A stretch of DNA of 64,000 nucleotides from a virus: IMG/VR virus record IMGVR_UViG_3300044646_003076. One strand, written 5' to 3'. Position numbers and translations under genes: made by a program. Positions within the stretch are counted from its first letter, which is position 1; each line of letters begins with the position of its first letter. Under the pieces are notes generated by a model. It had not been told where the DNA came from, made no database searches, and was given only the letters and a program-made list of their open reading frames with translations. Positions 9,501-55,956 of the stretch are shown piece after piece.

Positions 9501-12500
9501 GAAATACTGATATTGTTGATATTAGACCCAGAGTTGATAATTACACTGTTCAAATAGATGCGAGATCACCTTTTGAATTTGAAGGTAGAAAATTCACACA
9601 AACAGGAAACTCGTCCACTAATATTCTTGCTTCAGACGAAGAATTAATTCTCAACTTTGATTATTATCAACCGAGAATTGATAGAATTTTTCTCAATAAA
9701 GAAGGGAACTTTATTGTTCAAAAGGGAACACCTTCTGATGAACCAGCACTACCCCAATCCGTAGATGATTCTATTGAAATTGCAAAGGTATTTTTACCAG
9801 CATATCTCTATGACACAAACAAAGCTTCAGTAACACAATATGATTATAAGAGATATCAGATGTCTGATATCTCAAAACTAGAGACAAGAATTAAAAATCT
9901 TGAAGCCTACACCACATTATCTCTTCTTGAAACCGAAACGTCCAATCTTTTTATTCCTGATGCTAGTAATCCAGGTCTAAACCGTTTTAAATCGGGTTTC
10001 TTTGTTGATAATTTTAAAACTTTAACCGCACAAGATGAAAGTGTTGGTATAAGAAATGCCGTAGATCCTAAAAATGGAGGAATGAGACCATCTCACTATA
10101 CTTCTTCAATTCCTCTTGTAATCGGAACAAAAGAACTTCTTGGTGTTGGGAGTACAACCAATATTGATTATTCCAATATTACCACAAGCGATATTTTGGG
10201 TGATAATATTCAAAAAACAGGTGATATTATTACCCTGAAATATAATAGTATTAAATGGTTAGAACAACCATTCGCTACTCGTGTTGAAAATGTACAACCT
10301 TTCATTCTTAGTTTCTGGGAAGGAACACTTTCTCTTAATCCCTCTTCTGATATTTGGGTTGATACAGTAAGACTTAATCCCAAAACAATTCAAGTAGAAG
10401 GTGATTATCTCGCTACTCTTAACAGATTGGTCGCTTCTAATGGTATAAATGCTCAAACAGGAATCGGTCCTACTATCTGGGGTTCATGGTCATTACTCGG
10501 TTATGGTAATCCTCGCTGGGTAAGAAGCTCTGGATTCACTAATGGTATTCCTTCAGTATTTCAAGGAAGAAGCGTATTGGGTCCGGCTCGCTGGTCTGGA
10601 CATGCAGTAGATTCAGTCAGTAGTGGTATTATTCCTACCACTGGTCTATATGTGGAAGCTAGAGATTCATTTTCTTCACGAACCGGATCCCAGATGATCG
10701 TATCTGAAATATTTGATACTAGATCTCTTGGTGATTCGGTAGTGGCGGTTGATATTCTTCCAAATATGAGATCCCGGAATATTGAATTCCGATGCTCAGG
10801 TATGCAAAAAGGAATATTAGTGTATCCTTTCTTTGAAGGTGTAGATGTGAGCCGTTATTGTTTCCCTAAACTACTTGAGATCTCAATGACCTCAGGCACT
10901 TTCATTATCGGTGAAACAGTAAGAATTAAAACAACAGCTAATAATATTGAAGGATATTTCCGTATTGCACAACCTAATCATAAAAATGGAGGATTTAATT
11001 CACCTTCAGAATTTTATTCAAGTGAACCTTATCGCAATACCGTATTACCTACTTCTTATACCTCAACATCAACTATTCTTAATGTTGATACTGGATCACT
11101 GGCTCTCAAATCACAGGGCAATTATTATGGTAAAGTTCAGAATGGGTTTATTCTTATTGGCGAGAGTAGTGGTGCAGAAGCAACTGTTTCTGAGCTGAGA
11201 TTGGTTACTGATAATAACGGAGAAATTGTTGGTTCTTTTTATATTCCAGATCCTAATATTCCAGAGAATCCAGTATTTTCCACAGGCACCAAGATCTTTA
11301 AACTAACCAGTAATGTAACAAACACTCCAATTAAAGGGAGTCCGTTAAGTGCAGCAGAGTCTAAATTCTTTGCTGAAGGTAAGAGGCAATCTATCCAAGA
11401 AAAAGTTCTTTCTGTTAGAAACGCTTCCGTTACTACCAGAACATTCACGGAAACTAAATCGGAAGAAGTCTTCACTGGTCTTTATATTGATCCTCTCGCA
11501 CAATCTTTCTCATGTGATGAACCAACTGGTGTATATCTTACACATGTTGATGTCTACTTTGAGTCCAAGGATGCATCTATTCCAGTTAGATGCCAAATCA
11601 GAACGATGGAGCTTGGTACTCCAACTCAGACAATTCTTCCATTCAGTGAGATTTCCCTGAATCCAGATGATGTCAATATTTCTTCTGATGGTTCAGTATC
11701 AACAACTTTTAAATTCAGTTCTCCTGTTTATATTGAACCGGGTCAAGAAAACGCATTTGTTTTACTTTCTAACTCAACATCTTATAGAGTCTGGATTTCT
11801 AGACTTGGTGAACGCGATGTGTTTAGTAAAAAAATAGTTGAGACTCAACCAACTTTAGGATCCCTATTTAAGTCTCAAAATGCATCAACTTGGACACCTA
11901 GCCAATTTGAAGATCTTAAGTTCACTCTTTATCGGGCAGAGTTTGCTACCACTTCTGGATATGTGAATTTCTATAATCCAGATCTCAATGAAGCTAATTC
12001 ACAGATTCCTATTCTTACCAATAATCCATTAGATCTTATCTCAAGAAAAGTTAGACTTGGACTTGCAGTAACTATCACAGAAAGCGATAATAACTTTAAA
12101 TATGGACAAACAGTATATCAACCTAGCACCAATGCTCAGGGTATATACATTTCAAAAGTAGGATTAGCAACAGGGGGAACATCAAATGGTGGTTTAACAA
12201 TAACTTCTGCTGGAATTGGTTATACTCCAACATCAGGTACTCTCACGTATAATAATATTTCACTTTCACCAATAACCGGATCTGGACGCAACGCAACAGC
12301 CAATATCACTATTTCCAATGGTGTTGCAATTGGCGCAACCGTTGTTAATAGTGGAACTGGTTATCAAGTGGGCGACGTATTAACCGCCACACAAATTGGA
12401 GCAAATGCCTTAGGTAGAAATCTTAGAATCTCTATTGGTAATGTAACACAATTTAATGAACTCGTTCTTGATAATGTCCAAGGTAATTTTGCTACGGGAG

Positions 12501-35446: not shown

Positions 35447-36013
35447 ATGCCCGATACATCTTATAACATTCCAAGTAATCAAATAGAAAATAGAAACTTT
35501 TCATATCCAACAAAATATCGCTTTACTCTAAACCGATATCCTAAAGCGATATTTTTTGCTAATTCTGCTTCTATTCCTGGACTTGAATTAACATTGGCAA
35601 CACAACCAACTTCTCTAGGAAGAGACATTCCACAACCAGGAAATAAACTCCGAATGGATTCATTTGATTTAAGATTTATCGTAGACGAGGATCTAGTCAA
35701 TTATAATGAAATCAATAAATGGTTAAGAGGTCTTGGATATCCAGAATCATTGCAACAAATTTACGATTTACAAAAAGAAGGTAATAATAACTCATATAAG
35801 TCTGGACTAGATTTATATTCCGATGGTACTCTTCAAGTTCTTAATTCTAATGATAAGCCTACAGTACAAGTTCGTTATTATGACTTATTTCCATTTTCAA
35901 TAACACCACTGGTTTTTGATGCCACAATCTCTAAGCCAGATCCATTTCTTGCCACGGTCAAGTTCCAATATACATACTTTGAACTTTTGGATAAGAGTGG
36001 AAATCCTCTATGA
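35447..36013 (+). CDS. gp3: Tail completion / sheath stabilizer
   Basis: NRNFSYPTKYRFTL; FFANSASIPG; FIVDEDLVNYNEI.KWLRGLGYPE; YSDGTLQVLNSN. Confidence 0.92.
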   Translation: MPDTSYNIPSNQIENRNFSYPTKYRFTLNRYPKAIFFANSASIPGLELTLATQPTSLGRDIPQPGNKLRMDSFDLRFIVDEDLVNYNEINKWLRGLGYPESLQQIYDLQKEGNNNSYKSGLDLYSDGTLQVLNSNDKPTVQVRYYDLFPFSITPLVFDATISKPDPFLATVKFQYTYFELLDKSGNPL

Positions 36014-36435
36014 AGCATAGTGAAATTGAACAAATGTGGAAACAAGACTCGGTTATTGATCCCGATAATCTTCATCTTGAGTCCATAAAAATTCCACAAT
36101 TACATGGAAAATATTATGAAATTTTAAACCGAGTTTTTATTCTTAAAAAACAAAAAGAATTAGAATACAAAAGACTTTATAAGAATCAATGGTTATATTT
36201 CTCAGGTAAAGCCGATCCCGAAGTTTACCAAGAAAAGCCATTTCCCCATAAGATTATGAAGCAAGATGTTGGAATTTATATTGAAGCTGATGAGGATCTT
36301 AATAAAATCAAAAGCATGTTAGAGTATTATTCACATACGATTGATTATCTTAAAGACATTCTTAAGCAGATTCATAATCGCACTTTTCAGATTAGAGATA
36401 ATATAGAATACAGTAAATTTATCGCAGGTCAATAA
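36010..36435 (+). CDS. uvsY: Recombination mediator
   Basis: MWKQDSVIDPDNLHLESIKIPQLHGKYYE; YFSGKADPEVY.EKPF; IHNRTFQIRDNIE. Confidence 0.95.
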   Translation: MKHSEIEQMWKQDSVIDPDNLHLESIKIPQLHGKYYEILNRVFILKKQKELEYKRLYKNQWLYFSGKADPEVYQEKPFPHKIMKQDVGIYIEADEDLNKIKSMLEYYSHTIDYLKDILKQIHNRTFQIRDNIEYSKFIAGQ

Positions 36436-37898
36436 TGGCTGATGTAACAATTCAAAAGAAAAATGAGATTTACATAAAACTCATATGTGAACCATACGTT
36501 CTTTATGAAATGGCACAATACTTCACCTTTGATGTTCCTGGTGCGAAGTATTCACCTGCATACAAAAAGGGTGGTTGGGATGGTAAGATTTCACTTCTCT
36601 CAACGTCTACTGGTGAAATCTATTGTGGTCTTTTGGATAGAATTATCGCTAAGCTGAAGATTCATGGATTTTCTTATGAATTTAAAGACAATAAGCAATA
36701 CGGCTTACCCTTTGAGATCAATCCAGAAATAACACTAGAAGGTGTCACTGGATTCATGAATGTTCTTGGACCAAAAGCCAATCTTATTCCCGATGATTAT
36801 CAAATTAATGCAGTATATGAATGTCTAAAGTACAACAGAAAAACAATCGTATCACCCACATCTTCTGGTAAAACATTCCAGATTTTTGGATTGGTTCGCT
36901 ATTATATGATGAAGAATTATAAGATTCTTATTGTCTTTCCTCAAACAAGTCTTATTCGGCAAACCTATAAAGAATTTGAAGACTATGGATTAGATTCAGA
37001 ATCTACTTGTCATATGATCTATCAAGGACAATATAAAAAATCAGATAAGCAAGTACATCTTTCAACTTATCAATCCATTTATGATCTAGATAAATCTTTT
37101 TTCAACCAATATGATGTTGTTATTGTTGATGAGTGTCACAGAACAACATCAAAGAGTCTTATTGGTATTATGAAGAAATGTCCTGACGTGAAGTATCGTT
37201 TTGGATTTACTGGAACTCTTAGTAACAACGATGATTCAAAAGCTCCTAACGAATTAACAATTTCTGGACTTTTTGGACCTTCTTATAGAACCACCAATAC
37301 CAAAGAACTCATTGAAAAAGGAAGAGTTTCACAATTAGATATTCGTTGTGTTGTTCTAAAGCACAAACCACAAAAGTTTGATCGTTATGAAGATGAAGTT
37401 CAATATCTTATTAGTAACGAAAAAAGAAACAATTTTATCTGCGATCTTTCTAGTAAACTCAACAACAACACTCTTGTTATATTCTCCAGAGTTGAGAGTC
37501 ATGGTCAACTGCTTTATGATATTCTAAAAGAAAATAAGAACAAAAAAATCTTCTTTATTCATGGTGGTGTTGAGGTTGAAGAGCGCGAAAGAGTTAGACA
37601 GATTTGTGAACAAGAAAATAATGCAATTATTATCGCATCTTATGGTGTCTTTAGTACCGGAATTAATATTAAGAATTTACACAACATCATATTGGCATCT
37701 TCTTCTAAAGGAAAAATTCGGATTCTTCAGACTATCGGTAGAGGATTAAGAAAACACAAGTCTAAAGATAGAGCAACTCTTTATGATATCGCTGATGATT
37801 GTGGAAAAAATTACACTCTTAATCATTTCTTAGAAAGAATCAAAATTTATAATGAAGAAGAATTTGATTATGACATTAAGACCATAGAACTCAAGTAA
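36435..37898 (+). CDS. uvsW: SF2 RNA-DNA/DNA-DNA helicase
   Basis: SPTSSGKT, VIVDECH, GFTGTL, STGINIKNLHN, LQTIGRGLRK. Confidence 0.96.
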   Translation: MADVTIQKKNEIYIKLICEPYVLYEMAQYFTFDVPGAKYSPAYKKGGWDGKISLLSTSTGEIYCGLLDRIIAKLKIHGFSYEFKDNKQYGLPFEINPEITLEGVTGFMNVLGPKANLIPDDYQINAVYECLKYNRKTIVSPTSSGKTFQIFGLVRYYMMKNYKILIVFPQTSLIRQTYKEFEDYGLDSESTCHMIYQGQYKKSDKQVHLSTYQSIYDLDKSFFNQYDVVIVDECHRTTSKSLIGIMKKCPDVKYRFGFTGTLSNNDDSKAPNELTISGLFGPSYRTTNTKELIEKGRVSQLDIRCVVLKHKPQKFDRYEDEVQYLISNEKRNNFICDLSSKLNNNTLVIFSRVESHGQLLYDILKENKNKKIFFIHGGVEVEERERVRQICEQENNAIIIASYGVFSTGINIKNLHNIILASSSKGKIRILQTIGRGLRKHKSKDRATLYDIADDCGKNYTLNHFLERIKIYNEEEFDYDIKTIELK

Positions 37899-38203
37899 TC
37901 TTTAATCTTAATATACTTTTTGATGTAGTGTGGAGTGTTTGGATTATATGCTACACTGCGACGAACAAGACAATGATCATCGGATGCTAGATGTTCTAGA
38001 ACTTTTGGTGGTGTGTTTGGATTATATGCTACACTGCGACGAACAAGACAATGATCATCGGATGCTAGATGTTCTAGAAATTTTGGTGGTGTGTTTGGAT
38101 TTAGTGCTACCCTATAACGAACCAACCAATCCTCATCGGTCGCTAGTTGTTCTAGAGTTTTTGGTGAAGTGTTTGGATTACTGGCTTGTTCAAGTTTGTT
38201 CAT
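37868..38203 (-). CDS. LRV/HEAT-like repeat protein A (three 26-aa repeats); ATG 38203 preferred over the track's TTG 38209
   Basis: Repeat NPNTPPKxLExLATDxxxxVRxxVAx; shared N-cap MNKLEQAS and C-cap NPNTPHYIKKYIKI. Confidence 0.85.
   Translation of the reverse strand: MNKLEQASNPNTSPKTLEQLATDEDWLVRYRVALNPNTPPKFLEHLASDDHCLVRRSVAYNPNTPPKVLEHLASDDHCLVRRSVAYNPNTPHYIKKYIKIKDYLSSMVLMS
37941..38096. repeat. Near-perfect 78-bp tandem duplication inside LRV protein A
   Basis: 37941-38018 and 38019-38096 differ at one base (Val vs Phe codon). Confidence 0.95.
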
Positions 38204-38408
38204 AATCAATTCTCATCTTTTGTATAAACTTGTTCACATTCACCTCTCCTCTTACATACAATAATAACTCTAGTTGTTGAAAATAATTCAAGATTTTTAT
38301 TCAGACAAGATAAATTTTTACCAGAATTACAAATCATAATCGTTGTTATGAAATCAAGCATTTAAGGTTCCTAATATAATTGCGTTGTTTATTATTATGA
38401 AAGAATTG

Positions 38409-38975
38409 TTATGTTTTATCTAACTTAGCTAGTTGTTCTTGAATTTTAATATACTTTTTGATGTAGTGTGGTGTGTTTGGATTTTGTGCTACTCCACAAC
38501 GAACATCAGAATTCTTATTGGTCGCTAGTTGTTCTAGTGCTTTTGGTGGTGTGTTTGGATTACATGCTACCCAATAACGAATAGAATAATCATCATCAGT
38601 CGCTAGTTGTTCTAGGGCTTTTGGTGGTGTGTTTGGGTTTTGTGCTAACGCCACACAAATATAATACCTATCATTGGTCACAAAACTCTTTATTGTCGTT
38701 GGTTGGGTATCTGAAATTTTTAATGCTTGCCAACAAATTTTCCAGCCCTCATCTGCCATTAGAAGTTCTAATGTTTCAGGTGAAGTGTTTGGATTTCTTG
38801 CTACTCCACAACGAACCCAATACTCTTCATCAGTAGCTAGACGCTCTAGCTCTTCTCGTGGTGTGTTTGGATTACATGCTACCCAATAACGAATAGAATA
38901 ATCATCATCAGTCGCTAGTTTTTCTAGAGTTTTTGGTGAAGTGTTTGGATTACTGGCTTGTTCAAGTTTGTTCAT
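38409..38975 (-). CDS. LRV/HEAT-like repeat protein B (six repeats, two of them degenerate)
   Basis: Same caps and repeat consensus; ATGA overlap with the upstream paralogue. Confidence 0.87.
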   Translation of the reverse strand: MNKLEQASNPNTSPKTLEKLATDDDYSIRYWVACNPNTPREELERLATDEEYWVRCGVARNPNTSPETLELLMADEGWKICWQALKISDTQPTTIKSFVTNDRYYICVALAQNPNTPPKALEQLATDDDYSIRYWVACNPNTPPKALEQLATNKNSDVRCGVAQNPNTPHYIKKYIKIQEQLAKLDKT

Positions 38976-39451
38976 AATCTAGCTAATTGGTCTTGAATTT
39001 TAAGATACTTTTTGATGTAGTGTGGTGTGTTTGGATTTCTTGCTACACATTCACGAACCTCAGAACTCTTATCGGTCGCTAGGAGTTCTAGTGTTTTTGG
39101 ATGTGTATTTGGATTTCGTGCTACCCGATAATAAACATAAAAACATTCATCGGTCGCTAAAAGTTCTAGAGTTTCTGGTGGTGTGTTTTGATTATATGCT
39201 ACATTATAACGAACACCAGAATTCTCATCGGTTGCCAGTTGTTCTAGGATTTCTAGTGGAGTGTTTAGATTTTCTGCTACAACAATACGGACACGATAAT
39301 CCTCATCGGTTGCTAGTTGTACTAAAATTTTTTGTGGTGTGTTTGGGTTATGTGCTACACAACAACGAACACCAGATTCCTCATCGGTTGCCAGAATTTC
39401 TATTACATTTGGTGGTGTATTTGGATCTCTAGCTTGTTCAAGTTTGTTCAT
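38972..39451 (-). CDS. LRV/HEAT-like repeat protein C (five repeats)
   Basis: Same caps and repeat consensus; ATGA overlaps on both sides. Confidence 0.87.
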   Translation of the reverse strand: MNKLEQARDPNTPPNVIEILATDEESGVRCCVAHNPNTPQKILVQLATDEDYRVRIVVAENLNTPLEILEQLATDENSGVRYNVAYNQNTPPETLELLATDECFYVYYRVARNPNTHPKTLELLATDKSSEVRECVARNPNTPHYIKKYLKIQDQLARL

Positions 39452-39798
39452 AACGTCGCCAGATGTTCTTGAATTTTAATATACTTTTTGATGTAGTGTG
39501 GTGTGTTTGGATTTAGTGCTACCCTATAACGAACAACAGAATTCTCATCGGTCGCTAGTTGTTCTAGGGCTTTTGGTGGTGTGTTTGGATGTATTGCTAC
39601 ACAATAACGAACACTAGAATCCTCATCGGTCGCTAGTTGTTCTAGGGCTTTTGGTGGTGTGTTTGGATTATGTGCTACCAAATAACGAACATTAGGATCC
39701 CCATTGGTGACTAAAAGTTCTAATAGTTTCGCCTGAGTATTTTGATTCCATATAGTATTTGGATCCAAAATAAAGTCAATAAAATTCACATTAGACAT
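39448..39798 (-). CDS. LRV/HEAT-like repeat protein D (three repeats, divergent N-terminus)
   Basis: Repeat consensus and HYIKKYIKI C-cap. Confidence 0.85.
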   Translation of the reverse strand: MSNVNFIDFILDPNTIWNQNTQAKLLELLVTNGDPNVRYLVAHNPNTPPKALEQLATDEDSSVRYCVAIHPNTPPKALEQLATDENSVVRYRVALNPNTPHYIKKYIKIQEHLATL

Positions 39799-39994
39799 AA
39801 TAAATTTTTCTCTTTGGTTGTTCTTTTCTTTTTACAATAAACTTATTAGCAGAATCAAAGGAATCAAAACATATTTCAACAGGAAAAACTTCTGCTTTGA
39901 TAAAAGGCATCCAAAAAAGAAGTAACTTTCGCTGTTGTGGATAAAATTTAATGTTTCCGTTTAAATCAGTTTTTTCAACAATACGGTAGATCAT
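39791..39994 (-). CDS. Small hypothetical protein (67 aa from ATG 39994)
   Basis: MIYRIVEKTDLNGNIKFYPQQRKLLLFW...; overlaps the start of LRV-D and lies in the same minus-strand run. Confidence 0.7.
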   Translation of the reverse strand: MIYRIVEKTDLNGNIKFYPQQRKLLLFWMPFIKAEVFPVEICFDSFDSANKFIVKRKEQPKRKIYYV

Positions 39995-40002
39995 TTTAGT
40001 AA

Positions 40003-40620
40003 TTAACAAAAAGAAGTAATAACAACATTAACGTGAGAAGTAGTTCTTTTAATTTTATTGATGATTTTCTTCCACCAAGATTGACGATATCTTGAAATCA
40101 TTTGGCTAAAATAACCACCTTGCGAGGTACTAATGATAACAAGATATTCTGTTGTTGGTAATATAGTCTCTAGAAGTTTCTGTGAAATCGTATCATCTTC
40201 ATCTACAATAACAACATCAAACCTATTATAACGATAACTATTGATTGATGAACAATTAAAAACGTTAACATTTTTAGATTTAATGAAAGGTTTAATGTCA
40301 TTTAATCTGGAATAGTTTGAGAAAAATACACCAACTTTCTTGTTACATAGTAAACCTAGATAATTGGCTAGATTAATAGTGAAGAAGGTTTTTCCAGATC
40401 GTCTAAATGTAGCAATTAATGTAATAGGACTTTTGAAACAAGAACGAAACCACTTTCTTTGATAACGTTTTAATCCTTTAGTCTCCACAAAAGAAGGATA
40501 GATTCTTGTTCCTTTAATGAAACAATTAAACTTTTCTAGTTCATTAGAGGGATTCTGAAACAACATGTTAGATGTTCTGACAGATTTTAATAACTTATTT
40601 AACGAGTTCTTGATATTCAA
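40003..40620 (-). CDS. Minimal terminase-like P-loop ATPase (no nuclease domain)
   Basis: Q-motif LKRYQ, Walker A FRRSGKT, Walker B DVVIVDE, motif III IISTSQG; 205 aa. Confidence 0.75.
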   Translation of the reverse strand: MNIKNSLNKLLKSVRTSNMLFQNPSNELEKFNCFIKGTRIYPSFVETKGLKRYQRKWFRSCFKSPITLIATFRRSGKTFFTINLANYLGLLCNKKVGVFFSNYSRLNDIKPFIKSKNVNVFNCSSINSYRYNRFDVVIVDEDDTISQKLLETILPTTEYLVIISTSQGGYFSQMISRYRQSWWKKIINKIKRTTSHVNVVITSFC

Positions 40621-40838
40621 AACTTTTCTTCTCTTGTTAATGTTGATTGATGATTTAAATGTATTTGATAGTTTAATCGTCTATAACGCTTACTAAAAAC
40701 ATCTGGTAACCAATAAGTTTCTAGATATTCTACTTTTACATTTTGAAGAAAGAAATCTAGATCATGAAAAATACCTAATTGACAATAACCATCGTGAGTG
40801 ATAAAGTTATTGTCGTCAAGTCTATAGTAATAAAGCAT
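40617..40838 (-). CDS. Conserved cyanophage hypothetical protein (ATG 40838 preferred; track start 40868 is TTG)
   Basis: HDGYCQLGIF...ETYWLPDVFSKRYRR motif, recalled from the minus-strand gene found between uvsW and gp55 in cyanomyoviruses. Confidence 0.75.
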   Translation of the reverse strand: MLYYYRLDDNNFITHDGYCQLGIFHDLDFFLQNVKVEYLETYWLPDVFSKRYRRLNYQIHLNHQSTLTREEKF

Positions 40839-40900
40839 TATTGTATTTGACGAACGATAGTGAGTCAATTCCCGAAGGGAATGATTAAATAATATTAGAA

Positions 40901-41296
40901 GTGTTAAGAAATATAATGCAAGAGGAATTTTATGCGGTTGTTAAGTTAGTAAGTGGTGAAGAAATTTTTGGTATAGTATCCCCAATGGAGGAACAGGGTG
41001 AACAGTATTTGATTCTTTTAGATCCCATTAGTATCACTAGAGAAGAGTTGAATAACGTTTACATTTACAGAATAGAACCATGGATGAAGCTAACACAAGA
41101 AACGATTTTCATCTTAGAAAAGTCAAAAATAATTACGGTAGTAGAATCATTTGACGATGAGCTAATAAAGCTTTACAAACGTTATTTGAACAAAAGTGAC
41201 TCTAGTGGAACCTATGTACTCAATAGATCTGAAGGATTCATCAATAACGTTAAACGAGCTAGAATGATACTAGAGAAGATCTACAGAATCAATTAA
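40901..41296 (+). CDS. Conserved hypothetical protein (Sm-like fold suspected) upstream of gp55
   Basis: MQEEFYAVVKLVSGEEIFG; IEPWMK; late promoter TAAATA at 40886-40891. Confidence 0.8.
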   Translation: MLRNIMQEEFYAVVKLVSGEEIFGIVSPMEEQGEQYLILLDPISITREELNNVYIYRIEPWMKLTQETIFILEKSKIITVVESFDDELIKLYKRYLNKSDSSGTYVLNRSEGFINNVKRARMILEKIYRIN

Positions 41297-41393
41297 TTCC
41301 CTTCGGGAATCAGCTCCTTTCAGTCGCTGGTACTAACTTTAGTTAAATTTAATCTATTAAATTTTAATAGTTACTGGTGACGTAACTCCTGTG

Positions 41394-41422
41394 AGTCTAC
41401 TCACACTTTTTCCATTTGTCAA
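41394..41422 (-). promoter_or_regulatory. Leftward sigma70-like promoter
   Basis: Minus strand TTGACA (41422-41417), 17-bp spacer, TAGACT (41399-41394). Confidence 0.7.
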
Positions 41423-41475
41423 GCTTTAATATGCCACTTTGTTCACTGGCACACTCTACCACCTTATAACCCCTC

Positions 41476-41504
41476 TTGACAAATCAGACATTATGTGTTA
41501 TAGT
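41476..41504 (+). promoter_or_regulatory. Sigma70-like early promoter for gp55
   Basis: TTGACA 41476-41481, 17-bp spacer, TATAGT 41499-41504. Confidence 0.85.
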
Positions 41505-41540
41505 GGTCTTCTAAATAGGCGACCGTGAGGAAAATATTGA

Positions 41541-42059
41541 ATGATAACAACCAGTGTAATGAAAAAGAAAAAGAGATCGGTTCATTATGTTTCAAATCAA
41601 GAACTATCCGATGCATTAGTAGCTTACATCAAACTTTGTAGAGAAGCGAAAGAAAAAGGAGAACCAAGACCAAGAGTACCAGAATTTTTAGGTAAATGTT
41701 TTCTTAATATCGTAACAAGATATTCTTATCTTCCTCAGTTTGTTAATTATCCTTTTCTGAATGATATGATTTCAGATGCAATAGAAAACTGCTGTAAGTA
41801 TTGTCATAATTATAATCCCGATTATGTGAGTCCAAAAACAGGTAAGAAAATTAATGCCTTCAATTATATTACTCAATATGCCTACTTCGCTTTCATTCGT
41901 AGAATTAAACTAGAGAAGAAAGAAATGGAGAAAACGAGTAGAATGCTTGAACAACTTGATTTCAATAATGTAATGGTTGACGAAGGAGAAGGTATTGATA
42001 ATTACAGTGATTATAATTCAATTAAAGACAACGTATTTTTACGACTGAGACAAGGATGA
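41541..42059 (+). CDS. gp55: Late-transcription sigma factor
   Basis: HYVSNQEL..AL; FLGKCFLNI; FVNYPFLNDMISDAIENC; AFNYITQYAYFAFIRRIKLEKK. Confidence 0.95.
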   Translation: MITTSVMKKKKRSVHYVSNQELSDALVAYIKLCREAKEKGEPRPRVPEFLGKCFLNIVTRYSYLPQFVNYPFLNDMISDAIENCCKYCHNYNPDYVSPKTGKKINAFNYITQYAYFAFIRRIKLEKKEMEKTSRMLEQLDFNNVMVDEGEGIDNYSDYNSIKDNVFLRLRQG

Positions 42060-43096
42060 GTAAAATAGCCATTATTACAGATCAACATTTTCAGGCAAGG
42101 AAAACCTCTAAACAATTTCACGATTATTTTCTAGAATTTTATAATAATATTTTCTTTCCTTATCTAGAGAAACATAATATCAAAACCGTTATTGATCTCG
42201 GTGACACTTTTGATAATCGCAACTTTCTTGATCCCGCTGCGATTGATTGGGCAAAAAGAAATTATTACGATCGGTTATATACCTTAGGAATTGATCATCA
42301 CGTTGTTGTAGGTAATCACACTTCCAAACTTAAAAATACCAATAAGATTAGTTCGGTTGATCTTATTCTTAGAGAGTATAGCAATATCACAATCTATAAG
42401 AATCCAACCGATACGAAAATTCAAGATCTAGATATTCTTTTTATTCCTTGGATCAATAAAGAAAACGAAGAAGAAACTCTGAATAAGATTCGTAACACCT
42501 CAGCAAAGATCGCAATGGGTCATCTGGAATTGAATGGTTTCAGTCCTTATGTTGGTCATGTTATGGAAGATGGAAGAGAATCCGATGTCTTCAAGAAGTT
42601 TCAAAAGGTTTTCTCTGGTCACTATCATACACGCTCCGATAACGGCAAGATCTATTACATCGGTAATCCTTACGAGCTGTATTTTAACGATGTGGATGAC
42701 AGACGTGGTTTTGTCATTTTTGACGCTGAAACCCTAGACCACGACTACGTTGATAATCCGTTTCGGATGCATTACCAACTCTATTACGATGGCGGTTGTG
42801 ACTTCACATTGACCGACGAGCTGAGCAATAAGATCATCAAGGTGATTGTTAAAAAAATTGATGACTTTAAGCACTTTGAAGAGTTTATTGCCGAGTTGAA
42901 TAAATTACAACCTGCAGAGCTTAAAATCATTCAGGCTATTCAGGCAGTTGATGTTGAAGAGTTTGAGACCACAGATTCAGAGGATACTCTTTCAGTTCTT
43001 CATCGCTATATTGATGAGTTTGAAAATAATTACGATAAGAGTCGGATTAAGAGTATCATCAATAATCTTTATCAAGAAGTTCATCAATTAGTCTGA
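42056..43096 (+). CDS. gp47: Recombination endonuclease subunit (Mre11-like)
   Basis: IITDQHF, IDLGDTFDNR, VVGNH, AMGHLELNGF, FSGHYH, YIGNPYE metallophosphoesterase motifs. Confidence 0.96.
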   Translation: MSKIAIITDQHFQARKTSKQFHDYFLEFYNNIFFPYLEKHNIKTVIDLGDTFDNRNFLDPAAIDWAKRNYYDRLYTLGIDHHVVVGNHTSKLKNTNKISSVDLILREYSNITIYKNPTDTKIQDLDILFIPWINKENEEETLNKIRNTSAKIAMGHLELNGFSPYVGHVMEDGRESDVFKKFQKVFSGHYHTRSDNGKIYYIGNPYELYFNDVDDRRGFVIFDAETLDHDYVDNPFRMHYQLYYDGGCDFTLTDELSNKIIKVIVKKIDDFKHFEEFIAELNKLQPAELKIIQAIQAVDVEEFETTDSEDTLSVLHRYIDEFENNYDKSRIKSIINNLYQEVHQLV

Positions 43097-43359
43097 TGTT
43101 TTTAATCACATTAAAAGATAAGAAAAAGAATGGTGCTTTTTCAATAATTAACGAAGAGAATGAAAAGATTCTATTGTTCTTTGAGATGTTTGATGATGCA
43201 GAACGTTATAGAATTTTATTAGAAGAACAAGATCTTCCTGAAATGGAGATTCTTGAATATGATGATAAGGTCCTAATAGAAACTACCGAAGCTATCGGAT
43301 ATAATTATACTATTATTGGTCCTTATGATCTAGTTGTTCCACCGAAAATGTACGATTGA
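43096..43359 (+). CDS. Conserved hypothetical protein between gp47 and gp46 (DUF3110-like)
   Basis: LLFFEMFDDAERYRILLE; YNYTIIGPYDLVVPP. Confidence 0.75.
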   Translation: MFLITLKDKKKNGAFSIINEENEKILLFFEMFDDAERYRILLEEQDLPEMEILEYDDKVLIETTEAIGYNYTIIGPYDLVVPPKMYD

Positions 43360-43362
43360 ATT

Positions 43363-44535
43363 ATGAAAATTAATTTACTAAATGGTGATTCTTTATTAAT
43401 ACTTAAAGAATTTGATGATAATAGTATTGATTCCATTGTTTGCGATCCTCCATATGGATTGAGTTTTATGGGAAAAAAATGGGATTATGATGTTCCTTGT
43501 GTGGAGTTATGGGCAGAATGTCTACGAGTGTTGAAACCGGGTGGACATCTTTTGGCATTTGCTGGCACACGGACACAGCATAGAATGGCATGTAGAATTG
43601 AAGATGCTGGCTTTGAGATCCGGGATATGATTGCCTGGGTCTACGGGTCGGGGTTCCCGAAGTCGCTGGATGTGAGCAAGGCGATTGATAAAGCTGCGGG
43701 CGCGGAGCGGGAGGTGGTGGGGCAACAGCATCGCCCCGAAGGAAGGCAGTTTGCGGAGGGTGCCAGCGGCTTCGCGCGTGGGGCCGTTGACATCACCGCC
43801 CCCGCCACCCCCGAAGCCCAGCAGTGGTCCGGCTGGGGCACAGCTCTAAAACCAGCACTTGAACCAATTACTATGGCTCGTAAACCATTAGAAGGAACTG
43901 TTGCTTCTAATGTGCTGGAGCACGGCACCGGGGCGCTGAATGTGGATGGGTGCAGAGTGGCACATAATGAGGATTGTCGGATCATGGCTCCAAGTCAATC
44001 CAACATTGACAATCCAAGTGAAAAACTTCGGCAGGGTGGTAGAAGAGAAGAAACCCTGGAACTGAAACCCTCCGGCCGCTGGCCCGCCAACCTGATCACG
44101 GATGGCAGTGACGAGGTGGTGGGGTTATTTCCAGATAGGAAAACAACATGGGTTTCCCCCAAACATAAAAATAATCGTAGTGGTGAATTTCTTGGAGAAT
44201 TAAAACATCCTGGAGCACAGGGTTTCAATGACTCAGGTTCGGCTGCCCGTTTCTTTTATTGTGCTAAAACAAGCAAGAAAGAACGTGGTAACGGAAATAA
44301 CCATCCAACAGTTAAACCTATTGCGCTCATGCGCTATCTTTGTCGTCTAGTCACACCTCCTGGTGGCACAGTTCTTGATCCATTTATGGGCAGCGGTTCT
44401 ACAGGAATCGCGGCACTTCAAGAAAATTTTAATTTTATTGGTATAGAGTTGGATGAAAATTATTATAATATAGCAAAAGATCGCATAGACGTAGTTAAAA
44501 ATAAACCAACATTAGATGTATTATTTGACCTATGA
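43363..44535 (+). CDS. Beta-class amino (N4C/N6A) DNA methyltransferase
   Basis: Catalytic motif IV DSIVCDPPYG precedes NHPTVKPIALMRYL and SAM-binding motif I VLDPFMGSGSTG. Confidence 0.92.
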   Translation: MKINLLNGDSLLILKEFDDNSIDSIVCDPPYGLSFMGKKWDYDVPCVELWAECLRVLKPGGHLLAFAGTRTQHRMACRIEDAGFEIRDMIAWVYGSGFPKSLDVSKAIDKAAGAEREVVGQQHRPEGRQFAEGASGFARGAVDITAPATPEAQQWSGWGTALKPALEPITMARKPLEGTVASNVLEHGTGALNVDGCRVAHNEDCRIMAPSQSNIDNPSEKLRQGGRREETLELKPSGRWPANLITDGSDEVVGLFPDRKTTWVSPKHKNNRSGEFLGELKHPGAQGFNDSGSAARFFYCAKTSKKERGNGNNHPTVKPIALMRYLCRLVTPPGGTVLDPFMGSGSTGIAALQENFNFIGIELDENYYNIAKDRIDVVKNKPTLDVLFDL

Positions 44536-46247
44536 TAATTTTTAAGAAAGTTAGAGCAAAGAATTTCTTATCGGTTGGTAATCAATTTTTAGATTATGAC
44601 CTGAATAATGAGCATTTGACTTGTATCCGTGGTGGAAATGGACAGGGCAAAAGTTTGATGATCGATTTTATTACTTTTTCTCTCTATAAAAAAGCTTACC
44701 GAAACATCAATCTTCCACAACTTGTCAATAACATCAACCAAAAAGACTGTGTTGCTGAAATAGAATTCTCTATTGGCGATACTGAATGGATGGTAAGACG
44801 CGGACTGTCACCGAATATCTTTGAAATTTATAAAAATGGTGAAATTTTAGATCAACATTCTTCTGTTATTGAACAACAGAAGTGGTTAGAGCAAAATGTT
44901 CTTAAGATGTCCTATAAGACTTTTATTCAGATTGTCATTCTTGGTTCTAGTGCCTTTATTCCTTTTATGCAGCTCGTTCCGGCTGATAGAAGAGATGTTA
45001 TTGAAGATCTTTTGGATATTAAGCTTTTCTCTTCTATGAATATTTTGGTCAAAGAGAAGATCAAAGAGTTTAAGGATAATGTTAAGATTCTATCAATCAA
45101 GAAAGATTCTTATGAAGACAAAGTTTCAATGCAACGGAATTTTATTGATGAGATTGAAAAACGAAGTAGAGACGACATACAAGAAAAAACCGATACCATC
45201 ACAGAACTTTTTTCTTCTATTGAATCATTACAATCCAAGAATGATGAGATCAATTTAGATATTCAAAAACTCAATGAAACTCTTGATGATCTTGTGGGTG
45301 TATCTGATAACCTAAAAACACTTCTAGCTAATAAGACAAAGCTTACAGTGGAAGCCAAGAATCTCAAAGAAACCACAAACTTCTTTGTTAATAACGATGT
45401 ATGTCCAACATGTTCACAGCATATTGATGATGAGTTTAAGAAATCAAAACAGAAAGATATTAAGAAACAGATGAGTTCTTTGAAGAAAACTTATGATTCT
45501 TTAATTCTTACGATTGATGAAGAAACTCAAAGACAAGAACAATTCAAAAAGACTTCTGAAGAAACAAATACCTTAAATCAAAAGATTTCTTATAATAACT
45601 ATCAGATCTCACAAGCTCAAAATAGAATTAAAGAACTACACGTTCAGATCAAACGTCTAACCGATGCGATCAATAATAAAAACGATGAACATCAAAAACT
45701 AGAAGAATATAACCAAACTCTAGACAATATTAAAACTGATATCGCAGAGCTAAAAGAAGAGATTCATCATTACGATTATGTTCAGCTCATATTGAAAGAT
45801 TCTGGTGTTAAATCAAGAATCATCGAAAAATACCTAAAGATTATTAATCAACAGATTAATAAGTATCTGAATCTTTTGGAGCTTTATGTTAATTTCAATC
45901 TTGATTCGGAGTTTAACGAAAAAATCACAACTCCAACCTTTGAAAGTTTTTCGTATGGTAACTTCTCTGAAGGCCAGAAGCGACGTGTAGATCTTGCACT
46001 TCTCTTTACATGGAGATATATCAGTACATTGAAGAACTCAGCTAATACAAATTTATTGATTTGTGATGAGATTCTTGATGGATCTTTAGATGAAATGGGT
46101 CACTTTGCTTTTCTTAAGATCATTAAAGAAGAGATGAAGAACTCTAATATCTTTGTTATTTCACATAGAGATGGAATTGAACATCGTTTTGATAAAGTTA
46201 TCACCATAGAAAAAAGAGGTAATTTTACGGTAAAATCAGAATCATAA
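44532..46247 (+). CDS. gp46: Recombination endonuclease subunit (Rad50/SMC-like ATPase)
   Basis: Walker A GGNGQGKS; zinc-hook CPTC; signature FSEGQK; Walker B LLICDEILDGSLD. Confidence 0.96.
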   Translation: MIIFKKVRAKNFLSVGNQFLDYDLNNEHLTCIRGGNGQGKSLMIDFITFSLYKKAYRNINLPQLVNNINQKDCVAEIEFSIGDTEWMVRRGLSPNIFEIYKNGEILDQHSSVIEQQKWLEQNVLKMSYKTFIQIVILGSSAFIPFMQLVPADRRDVIEDLLDIKLFSSMNILVKEKIKEFKDNVKILSIKKDSYEDKVSMQRNFIDEIEKRSRDDIQEKTDTITELFSSIESLQSKNDEINLDIQKLNETLDDLVGVSDNLKTLLANKTKLTVEAKNLKETTNFFVNNDVCPTCSQHIDDEFKKSKQKDIKKQMSSLKKTYDSLILTIDEETQRQEQFKKTSEETNTLNQKISYNNYQISQAQNRIKELHVQIKRLTDAINNKNDEHQKLEEYNQTLDNIKTDIAELKEEIHHYDYVQLILKDSGVKSRIIEKYLKIINQQINKYLNLLELYVNFNLDSEFNEKITTPTFESFSYGNFSEGQKRRVDLALLFTWRYISTLKNSANTNLLICDEILDGSLDEMGHFAFLKIIKEEMKNSNIFVISHRDGIEHRFDKVITIEKRGNFTVKSES

Positions 46248-46253
46248 TAAATA
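46248..46253 (+). promoter_or_regulatory. Late promoter
   Basis: ATAAATA after the gp46 stop. Confidence 0.7.
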
Positions 46254-46284
46254 GTTCAAATAAACACTAAATTGTAAAATAACC

Positions 46285-47004
46285 ATGTCTCAATCTCATT
46301 CTTTGTTTGAAGCATATCAGGCCGTTTACACACCTCAAGAGCAAGATGATTATCAACTTGTTTTAGATTATCTTGTTTCTGAGGGATATGTTGATGACGC
46401 GGATGAAGCCGAACTCGTTATTGAACAACTAGAAGACGATGTTATTGATGGTATTCTGGATGAAGTTAAGGGTTGTGGTGGTAAAGTGAATCCCGATAAC
46501 GGAGATTATGAAAATGGTTCTGGTTCTTCTAGGATGATGATGTCTCCTAGAAAGAAAGCTCTCGCTATGGCTAGACGCAAAGAAAATGAGGCAACTACAC
46601 CTCAACATCAGCGTCAAGCCGCTAAGATGCGCAGAGTTGCTAGTAATATGAAGGAAGAATTAGACGAGGCGAACAGAGCAGAAAGAGAATTTAAATTAAA
46701 CGATTCCGAAAAATTAGCAGCTAGAAATACTTCTTCTGCATATTTTAGGGTCTCACCTAAGGATCCCACTTCCCCCAATAGAATTAGAGCAAAGGGCTCG
46801 CTACATGCTGCGGATCAAGAGAAAAGACAAAAAACACACAAAGAAAAAAGAGGCATTAGAGAAGAATTAGACACCTACGATCTGGTTCTAGATTATCTTC
46901 TCTCTGAAGGTTTTGCTGATAATGAAGAAGCCGCTCTTCAGATTATGTCCAATATGAGCGAAGAGTGGATGGAAGAAGCTGTATCTCATTATGTGAATTC
47001 TTGA
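46285..47004 (+). CDS. Hypothetical putative internal head protein with two copies of a D.Y.LVLDYL.SEG domain
   Basis: DDYQLVLDYLVSEGYVDDADEA and DTYDLVLDYLLSEGFADNEEAA; late promoter at 46248. Confidence 0.7.
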   Translation: MSQSHSLFEAYQAVYTPQEQDDYQLVLDYLVSEGYVDDADEAELVIEQLEDDVIDGILDEVKGCGGKVNPDNGDYENGSGSSRMMMSPRKKALAMARRKENEATTPQHQRQAAKMRRVASNMKEELDEANRAEREFKLNDSEKLAARNTSSAYFRVSPKDPTSPNRIRAKGSLHAADQEKRQKTHKEKRGIREELDTYDLVLDYLLSEGFADNEEAALQIMSNMSEEWMEEAVSHYVNS

Positions 47005-47027
47005 AGTCAATATAAAATAAAAAGCAC

Positions 47028-47056
47028 TTGACAAATCGGAGATCTCGTGCTATAGT
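47028..47056 (+). promoter_or_regulatory. Sigma70-like early promoter for the LRV-E/F and gp45 operon
   Basis: TTGACA 47028-47033, 17-bp spacer ending GTGC, TATAGT 47051-47056. Confidence 0.85.
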
Positions 47057-47110
47057 GCCTAGGCGCCTTGAAAATGGGCATCTAGGCAATTTTTATGGAG
47101 TTTTATTATA

Positions 47111-47407
47111 ATGAGTGAAAATCATTTTTGGAGATACAATGAAGATAAGATTATTCGTCAGTTAGAAGAATATCTTAAAGGAACGTATAATCAACACTAT
47201 GTTGATAGAGTTAATGGTGGACAAGAACAAACGCTTGATAAAATCAAATATAACCGAAGAGAAGGTTTTTGTGCCGGGAATGTAACAAAGTATATTGATC
47301 GTTACGACGCAAAAGGAACACCGAGAGCTGATCTCTTTAAAGTTTTGCATTATACGATGTTATTGATCAATCATCTAAATCTTATTGAAAATAATGGACA
47401 AAGTTAA
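47111..47407 (+). CDS. Conserved hypothetical protein (DUF3310/SaV-like) upstream of the sliding clamp
   Basis: WRYNEDKII...TYNQHY; GFCAGNVTKYIDRY..KGTPRADLFKVLHY. Confidence 0.75.
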   Translation: MSENHFWRYNEDKIIRQLEEYLKGTYNQHYVDRVNGGQEQTLDKIKYNRREGFCAGNVTKYIDRYDAKGTPRADLFKVLHYTMLLINHLNLIENNGQS

Positions 47408-47858
47408 ATTAGCTAGAGATCCAAACACAACACCAGAAATCTTAGAACAATTAGCGACTGATGAGGATTATTGGGTTCGTTATCGTGTAGCATATAATCC
47501 AAACATACCAAAAAAAGTTCTAGAACAACTAGCGACCGAAAAGGATTCTAGTGTTCGTGAATGTGTAGCACTAAATCCAAACACAACACAAAAAGTTCTA
47601 GAACAACTGGCGACCGATGAGAATTATCTTGTTCGTGAATGTGTAGCATATAATCCAAACACACCACCAAAAGCACTAGAGCAATTAGCGACCGATGAGT
47701 ATTGGGATGTTCGTTATCGGGTGACACAAAATCCAAACACTCCGATTCATATATTGAAGATTCTCAGTAAAGATAGTGATCGTGAAACTAGAAATAGTGC
47801 ATTGAAAAACTTAAAACCCAAACAATTAGAACTTGATTTATCATTTAAATCTTATTAA
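47385..47858 (+). CDS. LRV/HEAT-like repeat protein E (four repeats; start possibly ATG 47394)
   Basis: Same 26-aa repeat; alternative C-cap NPNTPIHILK. Confidence 0.87.
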   Translation: MKIMDKVKLARDPNTTPEILEQLATDEDYWVRYRVAYNPNIPKKVLEQLATEKDSSVRECVALNPNTTQKVLEQLATDENYLVRECVAYNPNTPPKALEQLATDEYWDVRYRVTQNPNTPIHILKILSKDSDRETRNSALKNLKPKQLELDLSFKSY

Positions 47859-47863
47859 GAATT

Positions 47864-48256
47864 ATGAACAAATTTGAACAAGCAAAAAATCCAAACACAC
47901 CACCAAATGTACTAAAAATTCTAGCGACCGATAAGAATTATTGGGTTCGTTGTTGTGTAGCACATAATCCAAATACTTCAACAAAAACACTTGAACAACT
48001 AGCGACCGATGAGGATTCTTATGTTCGTTGGAGTGTGGCACAAAATCCAAACACTCCAATAAAAACTCTGGAACTACTAGCAACCGATGATAAATGGTAT
48101 GTTCGTCGTGGTGTAGCACTAAACCGAAACACACCACCAGAAATTCTTGAACAACTAGCAACCGATGAAGAATGGGATGTTCGTTATGGAGTATCAATAA
48201 ATCCAAACACTCCGATTCATATATTGAAGAGTCTCACTCAAACAATTAGAACTTGA
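47864..48256 (+). CDS. LRV/HEAT-like repeat protein F (four repeats)
   Basis: N-cap MNKFEQAK; repeats; C-cap NPNTPIHILK. Confidence 0.87.
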   Translation: MNKFEQAKNPNTPPNVLKILATDKNYWVRCCVAHNPNTSTKTLEQLATDEDSYVRWSVAQNPNTPIKTLELLATDDKWYVRRGVALNRNTPPEILEQLATDEEWDVRYGVSINPNTPIHILKSLTQTIRT

Positions 48257-54906: not shown

Positions 54907-55956
54907 ATGGATCTTTTAAAGAGTATTATTAAAGAAATCGGAGCTGAATACGCCAGTGTGGCTTCCGATATTGTTGAAAATGAGACCTTCATTGACACTG
55001 GGTCTTATATTCTAAATGCATTAACCTCAGGTAGTATCTTTGGTGGTCTTTCCCAAAACAAGATTACTTGTCTTGCTGCACCAGAAGCAAGCGGAAAAAC
55101 CTATATCGCCTTATCGGTTGTTAGAAATTTTCTAGAAAAAAATCCAGAAGGTTTTTGTATCTATTTTGATACAGAATCTGCGATCACTAAAAAAATGTTA
55201 GGTGAACGTAAAATTGATGTCAATAGAGTTATTGTTGTTGATAAGGTTGCAACGGTAGAGCAATTCAGAATGAAGACTCTTAAGGCCGTTGATGCCTATA
55301 TGAAACTAGCAGAGAAAGATAGAAAGCCCTGTCTTTTTGTTCTAGACTCTCTTGGGATGTTATCAACCAATAAGGAAATTAATGACACTCTTGCAGAAAA
55401 AGACACAAGAGATATGACCAAGGCCGCGCTTCTTAAGGGTGCATTTAGAATGTTGACGATCAAATTAGGTGAAGCTAATATTCCATTGATTGTCAATAAT
55501 CACGTTTATGATCAGATGTCATTATATTCCACAAAGGAACTTAGTGGTGGATCAGCTCTTAAATATTCAGCATCAACGATTCTAGAAATTTCTAAATCAA
55601 AAGAAAAAGTAGGAACCGAAGTTGCGGGTGTTATTCTAAGATTCAAAACCAGAAAATCTCGTTTTAGTAAAGAGAATCAAGATGTGGAAGTGCGGCTGTT
55701 TTACGATGAGCGAGGATTAGATCGTTATTATGGTTTGATTGAACTGGCCGAAGAAGGTGGAATTATTCCTAGAGTCGGAAATCGTTATGAGATTCAAGGT
55801 AAGAAGCTAGGTAAAAGACAGATTCTCGCTTCACCGGAAGAGTATTTCACACAAGATTTGTTAGAGAGAATAGACGAATATGCCAAAACGAAGTTCCAAT
55901 ACGGTAAGTCCGCGAAAACCGAAGAAACAGAAGACCCCGAAGATCTTTCTGAATGA
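54907..55956 (+). CDS. uvsX: RecA-like recombinase
   Basis: DTGSYILNAL.SGSIFGGL; Walker A APEASGKT; FDTESAI; VLDSLGMLST; RDMTKA; SGGSALKYSAS. Confidence 0.96.
   Translation: MDLLKSIIKEIGAEYASVASDIVENETFIDTGSYILNALTSGSIFGGLSQNKITCLAAPEASGKTYIALSVVRNFLEKNPEGFCIYFDTESAITKKMLGERKIDVNRVIVVDKVATVEQFRMKTLKAVDAYMKLAEKDRKPCLFVLDSLGMLSTNKEINDTLAEKDTRDMTKAALLKGAFRMLTIKLGEANIPLIVNNHVYDQMSLYSTKELSGGSALKYSASTILEISKSKEKVGTEVAGVILRFKTRKSRFSKENQDVEVRLFYDERGLDRYYGLIELAEEGGIIPRVGNRYEIQGKKLGKRQILASPEEYFTQDLLERIDEYAKTKFQYGKSAKTEETEDPEDLSE

Follow-up and report, generated by a model that had tools for sequence, protein, structure and literature searches.

Lineage-specific expansions of paralogues are known from large phages and viruses; Bacillus phage G, for example, carries about 35 copies of a small domain, the zinc ribbon (PMC7824862). 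The 64,000-nt stretch of viral DNA analysed here, called the window below, comes from IMG/VR virus record IMGVR_UViG_3300044646_003076 and contains an expansion of a different domain, the LRV repeat (PF01816), in the form of six small genes, A to F, arranged in two clusters. It corresponds to positions 10962–74961 of a 179,526-bp record (G000), itself probably part of a 244,489-bp contig, and the genome is T4-like and cyanophage-like. As in phage G, the copies lie among accessory genes between core modules, and that expansion is the nearest precedent found in the literature; the LRV copies differ from it in their position-specific hypervariability and in the mosaicism between copies. The family probably evolves by homology-driven exchange between paralogues, combined with diversifying point substitution and with turnover of whole repeat bodies, which are gained, lost or replaced.

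Mosaic tracts, a scaffold homogenised within lineages and ratios of non-synonymous to synonymous substitution (dN/dS) above 1 at predicted ligand-binding positions are features of multigene families that evolve, in concerted or birth-and-death fashion, through gene conversion or unequal crossover and diversifying selection, such as the leucine-rich repeat regions of plant nucleotide-binding leucine-rich repeat receptors and the antigens of pathogens. The LRV family resembles these families in the same features and differs from them in its phage setting (T4-like, about 180–244 kb), in its repeat and in the very small size of its genes; it represents a known evolutionary mode in an unusual setting. 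Lamprey variable lymphocyte receptors (VLR) offer a looser parallel, with repeat modules, a conserved scaffold with variable surface residues and short homologies that could in principle guide copying. VLR assembly is somatic, begins with a germline gene that is incomplete and has donor cassettes on its flanks, and is associated with cytidine deaminases, whereas the phage genes are all complete, no donor-only cassettes are seen beside them, and changes are visible between genomes only.

LRV genes and mosaic tracts between paralogues

Cluster 1 consists of four genes on the minus strand: A (37868–38203; 111 aa; N-cap, three units and C-tail; PF01816 E=4.6e-21), B (38409–38975; 188 aa; five scored units plus a degenerate middle; E=4.1e-36), C (38972–39451; 159 aa; five units, with stop/start overlaps with B and D; E=3.9e-34) and D (39448–39798; 116 aa; three units and a divergent head; E=2.1e-14). 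Cluster 2, on the plus strand, comprises E (47394–47858; 154 aa; four units and a different C-tail; E=1.9e-23) and F (47864–48256; 130 aa; four units; E=6.7e-27). All six proteins score well above the LRV (PF01816) cut-off of 21.6 bits (53–121 bits) and belong to that family. The 179.5-kb record contains at least 24 LRV genes (72–233 aa) with 75 PF01816 repeat matches, and the family is probably larger than 24 genes. Each of the 24 is a complete open reading frame with a start, an N-cap (MNKxEQA), units and a C-tail (NPNTPHYIKKY...), caps and tails being common to the LRV genes of this genome, and no cap-less cassette arrays were seen among the LRV genes of the record.

Genome-wide, 101 units of 26 aa (78 nt) could be scored, 24 of them in the window. 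The hypervariable positions of the unit are 16–19, 22, 23 and 26, where Y, W, S, C, R, G and D abound; the remainder is nearly fixed. Positions 16–19 (the left block) abut a Val-Arg pair (VR, encoded by GTTCGT), which is followed by the right block (positions 22, 23 and 26).

Ungapped, in-register comparison of all gene pairs identified 43 tracts of ≥60 nt at ≥93% identity. Near-identical tracts of 60–370 nt are embedded in genes that otherwise match at the 65–75% paralogue background. In C, 39176–39310 (minus strand) matches a paralogue 65 kb away (G000 115752–115886) at 132 of 135 positions, with flanks at 61–79%; in the collinear comparison of C with this paralogue (G11), identity per 39 nt runs at 87, 69, 79 and 76, rises to 100, 100 and 92, and falls back to 71, 61, 76, 74 and 79. 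D carries a tract (39528–39678, minus strand) matching the paralogue at G000 105146–105296 (144/151), which overlaps a 118/122 tract common to the paralogue at 157254–157375. In cluster 2, 47513–47585 of E (plus strand) matches a paralogue 118 kb away (G000 176773–176845; 72/73), and 47957–48031 of F (plus strand) matches another at G000 172385–172459 (74/75). Tandem unit duplications are found within A (units 2 and 3; 37935–38101, minus strand; 88/89 identical), G09, G10, G14, G16 and G22.

Each of the 25 strongest tracts (Fisher p 6e-18 to 8e-8) contains 0–4 scaffold-column differences, compared with 18% in the background, and the contrast between tract and background persists at scaffold third positions. 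The identity profiles have sharp borders, so whole-gene duplication, the alternative raised in an earlier, sequence-only reading of this region, cannot be their source if it was followed by even divergence. Sharp-bordered mosaic tracts between paralogues are one of the marks of concerted evolution.

Junction positions and origin of the variable blocks

The sequence-only reading had cited two pairs of identical DNA tracts that break at the GTTCGT core, and had proposed that recombination or gene conversion through this core shuffles variable cassettes between genes. Both matches are exact. The first (38086–38122, minus strand, A unit 1, VR-YR-VA-L-NPNTP) is identical to 39498–39534 (minus strand, D unit 3) over 37 nt, one base longer than originally given (38087–38122 and 39499–39534). 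The second (39348–39370, minus strand, C unit 1, VR-CC-VA-H-N) is the reverse complement of 47945–47967 (plus strand, F unit 1) over 23 nt. Read on the coding strand, both begin with GTTCGT, cross the right variable block and extend into the following NPNT. The residue pairings listed in that reading are likewise all present (xxYW with YR, CC and CG; EC with KDSS, ENYL and KSSE; xSG with CC and YN). The tracts do break at VR, but this is uninformative, since the hypervariable codons 16–19 next to it will end any match that comes in from the right.

Chance expectations were obtained by shuffling codon columns among units (276 pairs from the 24 window units; 5050 pairs from the 101 genome units). 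Exact in-register runs of ≥23 nt are found in 527 pairs genome-wide against 147 expected, with about 6 expected in the window, and the length of the 23-nt match is unremarkable on its own; runs of ≥36 nt are found in 107 pairs against 3 expected, with 0.07 expected in the window. An identical whole right half (columns 58–78) combined with a different left block occurs in two window pairs (0.13 expected, P=0.0075) and in 10 pairs genome-wide (2.4 expected, P=0.0035). The sharing of tracts is real and non-random.

In both cited pairs the similarity extends upstream of the variable left block, with 5/45 scaffold differences for A.1/D.3 and 6 of 45 for C.1/F.1 (background 9.25). C.1 and F.1, both first units of their genes, have in common a PPNV..IL stretch with Asn at position 7, a state found in only 2/101 units, and Ile at position 11, found in 7/101. 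Because the upstream scaffolds are closer than background and this stretch is rare, both pairs look like homologous whole units with a diverged left block, not like half-unit swaps. The 12 discordant right-block pairs show the same tendency, with a mean of 6.2 upstream scaffold differences against the background of 9.25, and nine of them fall below background.

Junctions were located from the register of the first mismatch beyond the ends of the 43 tracts and compared with uniformly placed breakpoints. Of 59 tract ends, 9 (15%) fall between the two blocks of a single unit, where about 19% are expected, and roughly three quarters lie in or beside the 45-nt NPNT...LATD scaffold. Across VR, the probability that the right block is shared given a shared left block is 0.22, and that of the reverse is 0.43; the corresponding values across the 45-nt scaffold, from a right block to the left block of the next unit, are 0.07 and 0.03. 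VR is the tighter link of the two, not a weak point. Exchange of DNA between paralogues, as proposed in the sequence-only reading, is therefore borne out by the sharp-edged tracts, but its passage through the VR core is not, the junctions fitting uniform breakpoints: exchange is real and homology-driven, and not centred on VR. Nor do the blocks form the limited pool of shuffled cassettes envisaged there, as the 101 units hold 79 distinct left blocks and 83 distinct right blocks in 93 combinations. Blocks are shared above chance all the same (left, 41 pairs against 6.5 expected; right, 21 against 6.2; both, 9 against 0.006). Most discordant pairs are supplied by the EDSS unit family, in which the right blocks differ by one-step codon changes (Y/C, C/W/R) and both flanks are nearly identical.

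Inside the shared tracts, dN/dS is 4.2–7.9 at hypervariable codons and 0.38–0.45 in the scaffold. Where hypervariable codons differ, they do so by one nucleotide in 88 cases, by two in 56 and by three in 8. These elevated ratios, together with the one-step codon differences, point to point substitution under diversifying selection as a major source of new blocks.

The scaffold shows the opposite behaviour, its codons being nearly uniform across units (CGT 95/96, GTA 88/94, GCG 71/95, ACC 67/91) and contrary to the preferences of the genome, which favours AGA over CGT, GTT over GTA, GCT over GCG, ACT over ACC and CTT/TTA over CTA. The VR codons (GTT 90/92, CGT 95/96) are no more invariant than other scaffold codons. 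L014 and L016, LRV-bearing phage contigs of more distant lineages, have CGC, GTT and ACT throughout their scaffolds and GTTCGC in place of GTTCGT; units are more alike within than between lineages, synonymous sites included, a further mark of concerted evolution. Within this genome, 235 unit pairs have ≤3 differences in 57 scaffold nucleotides and differ at nearly all hypervariable codons. Such a scaffold pattern is the classic signature of homogenisation, presumably by conversion or unequal crossover.

Remodelling in related genomes and competing explanations

Two metagenome assemblies, L019 and L020, have 94–96% backbone identity to this genome and are 100% identical to each other over 13.3 kb that include both clusters. 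Cluster 1 of this close relative contains three genes: R1, which joins the body of B (94.7% identity) to the tail of A; one new gene; and R3, which joins the head of D to the tail of B. In cluster 2, the repeat body of E matches the syntenic gene at 64–85%, the level of paralogues, with caps at about 90%. The position of F is occupied by a gene for a 274-aa protein (L020 19994–20818) with long degenerate LRV/HEAT-like repeats, which represents a different sub-family.

Other contigs of the same lineage retain some orthologous units (for example 78/78 and 76/78 in G17) next to units that have been replaced, and only about 6/101 units have a counterpart at ≥94% among the 119 units of relatives. 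A tract in B spanning a DDDYS-IRYW unit (38521–38636, minus strand) is 98.3% identical to a non-syntenic locus in L015 (9740–9855). L015 also encodes, at 7078–9297, an LRV protein of 739 aa in which many tandem units can be recognised by eye, directly after the orthologue of the gene at G000 119352–119645; no such giant form was seen in this genome. In L021, whose UvsW is 79% identical, a single LRV gene (8999–9550) lies at the syntenic site beside uvsW and has its own uniform scaffold (HPNCPIP..LEKL.ND), with the same positions variable.

The middle of gene B (38650–38810) consists of two degenerate units without VR/VA motifs. The one that could be scored (G01.3) is conserved at 78/78 in the close relative, unlike the first and last intact units of B, which are changed there; the other was not scored. 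This suggests that the segment either has a special, conserved role or was transferred very recently.

Further searches extended this set little. A metagenome scan with UvsW revealed no additional close relatives (best 79%), and no viral contig matched an exact 40-nt junction pattern. When gene C was compared by tblastn, with the low-complexity filter on, with 50,697 phage records, one weak match emerged, to a Moorella phage; the only megablast match of the region in the phage collection was an irrelevant one of 53 nt. Literature searches on LRV repeats in phages, and on phages B3 and B23, yielded nothing relevant.

In the mechanism that we consider probable, A–F, six of at least 24 paralogues, encode small cytoplasmic LRV alpha-solenoids with a fixed 26-aa scaffold and seven hypervariable positions. 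Homologous exchange among about 100 near-identical 78-nt units, by unequal crossover, tandem duplication and ectopic gene conversion, would homogenise the scaffold and occasionally move variable blocks into new contexts, with junctions at any site that offers enough homology, chiefly in the 45-nt NPNT...LATD stretch. The exchange is presumably catalysed by T4-type UvsX/UvsY/UvsW/gp46-47 machinery. Fast point substitution under diversifying selection would alter the hypervariable codons, and whole repeat bodies would be gained, lost and replaced while the N-caps and C-tails on either side are conserved. Some left/right re-pairings, a minority, may stem from exchanges that happened to end near VR.

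Several observations weigh against this mechanism or limit how far it reaches. Pairs in which one block is untouched and ≥2 codons of the other have changed number 14 against 6.5 expected (P=0.001, from non-independent pairs), and in one case WL and SS are separated by five adjacent nucleotide changes beside 36 identical ones; occasional short-patch exchanges ending at or near VR may have contributed. The pairwise homoplasy index (PHI), suggested as a check in the sequence-only reading and computed with our own implementation on 101 units and 77 di-units, was significant at the 6-nt window (P=0.006), probably a within-codon effect. Apart from the di-units at 12 nt (P=0.04), the runs at ≥12 nt, five of six, were non-significant (P=0.10–0.63); with sites this saturated, we judge the power of the test to be low. 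The dN/dS estimates come from tracts that had been picked on identity, and separate recent expansions from single founder units could also explain codon uniformity within lineages. Partial segmental duplication and gene conversion give the same mosaic, direction and mechanism being inseparable. Unit pairs are often non-independent and the EDSS family dominates several counts, so that P values are approximate.

Among competing explanations, a GTTCGT core acting as the preferred crossover point, with half-cassettes re-paired combinatorially loosely as in lamprey VLR, is quite improbable. It would account for the excess of identical right halves joined to different left blocks, for the 32 discordant pairs with the same left and different right blocks (about 6.5 by chance), for the over-dispersion of blockwise change described above and for VR codons that are nearly invariant even though the genome disfavours CGT. 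However, the tract ends that separate left from right blocks are about as frequent as under uniform breakpoints, linkage across VR is 3–6 times that across the 45-nt scaffold, most blocks are unique, leaving no small pool to be reused, and most discordant right-block pairs are also closer upstream. Other scaffold codons are as invariant as those of VR, and related lineages carry GTTCGC. Six bp of homology is also far below the known needs of homologous recombination in RecA and UvsX systems. VLR-type programmed assembly, in particular, is at odds with the completeness of all genes, each an open reading frame with caps, and with the identity of the relative's two assemblies over both clusters.

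Exchange between paralogues might also be dispensed with altogether, in favour of a recent burst of unit and gene duplication followed by point mutation under strong diversifying selection, the shared tracts being residual identity or chance. The dN/dS of 4–8 at hypervariable codons, the many single-step codon changes between related units, a 23-nt match within the chance range and the non-significant PHI at windows of ≥12 nt all fit this scenario, which is nevertheless unlikely. It does not readily produce sharp-edged tracts of 97–100% identity in genes otherwise at background level, scaffold third positions included (p 1e-3 to 1e-8), and the 235 scaffold-alike pairs imply a rate ratio well above 15, hard to reach from selection alone. 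Heads, bodies and tails are moreover joined differently in a relative at 95% backbone identity, and a unit of B recurs at a non-syntenic locus at 98% identity. Dedicated hypermutation targeted to the variable codons, for example by a diversity-generating retroelement, has very little probability. Variation limited to fixed codons within a constant scaffold would suit it, and the likeness to diversity-generating retroelements is that, in a phage, only certain codons of a binding scaffold are diversified. These retroelements have one variable region and a template repeat, whereas the phage family presents more than 100 targets across 24 genes with no apparent template/variable repeat pair, and the two assemblies of the relative are identical; no match to reverse transcriptase (PF00078) was found in the 179.5-kb record, itself incomplete.

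Predicted fold, possible role and genome neighbourhood

The AlphaFold2 model of gene C (predicted local distance difference test score, pLDDT, 96.6) is an alpha-solenoid with two helices per 26-aa unit. In a Foldseek search with this model 1LRV was the top match (E=5.4e-5), with a template modelling (TM) score of only 0.43, and alphaRep artificial binders matched at TM 0.70–0.77. The PF01816 matches above cut-off and the units of about 24–26 aa, each of two helices and forming a solenoid, agree with LRV proteins and 1LRV. In alphaRep, positions 18, 19, 22, 23, 26 and 30 are varied and form the target-contacting face (PMC3754942). The hypervariable positions of the phage units (16–19, 22, 23 and 26) have the same helical spacing, in a unit of 26 aa as opposed to 31 aa, and would be located in the second helix and immediately ahead of it; the analogy with alphaRep suggests that the variable residues line one face of helix 2. 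Unlike alphaRep and the natural HEAT-like repeat families, from one of which alphaRep was designed, the phage has at least 24 small natural genes with common caps and tails, not one long protein. The proteins may act as binders of host or defence proteins.

More tentatively, dozens of small intracellular binders might be kept by the phage lineage as a repertoire able to evolve, comparable to a natural alphaRep library, in which cassettes are re-sorted. Concerted evolution would maintain nucleotide uniformity of the scaffold, so that about 100 units stay recombination-competent, and helix-2 cassettes (positions 16–26) as well as whole bodies would be re-sorted between genes and between co-infecting relatives. 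Such a repertoire would allow quick retargeting of host or defence proteins, and would constitute a germline, population-level analogue, in a bacterial virus, of cassette-based immune and antigenic-variation systems. If the proteins do bind host or defence components, they would be among the largest position-specifically diversified protein repertoires seen in phage, and a ready natural library on a scaffold already proven in protein engineering. With a scaffold identical even synonymously, and seven codons per unit nearly all replaced between phages that are 95% identical elsewhere, the family provides a clean system in which to follow recombination and selection acting jointly on repeat proteins, in a virus whose homologous recombination is very active.

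Recombination genes do lie near the clusters, as noted in the sequence-only reading. uvsY (36010–36435, plus strand; recombination mediator; PHROGs phrog_231, E=1.5e-44) and uvsW (36435–37898, plus strand; helicase; phrog_16, E=8.9e-104) are situated beside cluster 1, with the end of uvsW overlapped by the 3′ end of gene A, and a RecA-family, UvsX-like recombinase match is found at 54979–55710 (G000 65940–66671, plus strand; PF00154, E=2.9e-19). Genome annotation search identified T4-type UvsY, UvsW, gp55, gp47/46 and gp45. UvsW shares 66% identity with its counterpart in Synechococcus phages B3 and B23, and the nearest cellular homologues found for gene C are cyanobacterial; as psbA was not found in the 179.5-kb record, host assignment rests on these two similarities.

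Within cluster 1, B, C and D overlap stop-to-start, and a 200-nt non-coding gap (38206–38408) separates A from B. A promoter scan of the cluster gave signal at chance level. In the relative the same gap, with the adjoining '...LAKLDKT' tail, is found between other genes, and it therefore behaves as a movable module boundary. Between gp47 and gp46 lies a DNA methyltransferase gene (43363–44535; phrog_67, E=6e-85) with a G+C content of 47%, reaching 54% in its core, in surroundings of 31–35%. In the relative L020, 96% identical, the gene is missing and the sequences corresponding to 43371 and 44525 are contiguous; the gene looks like a recent insertion.

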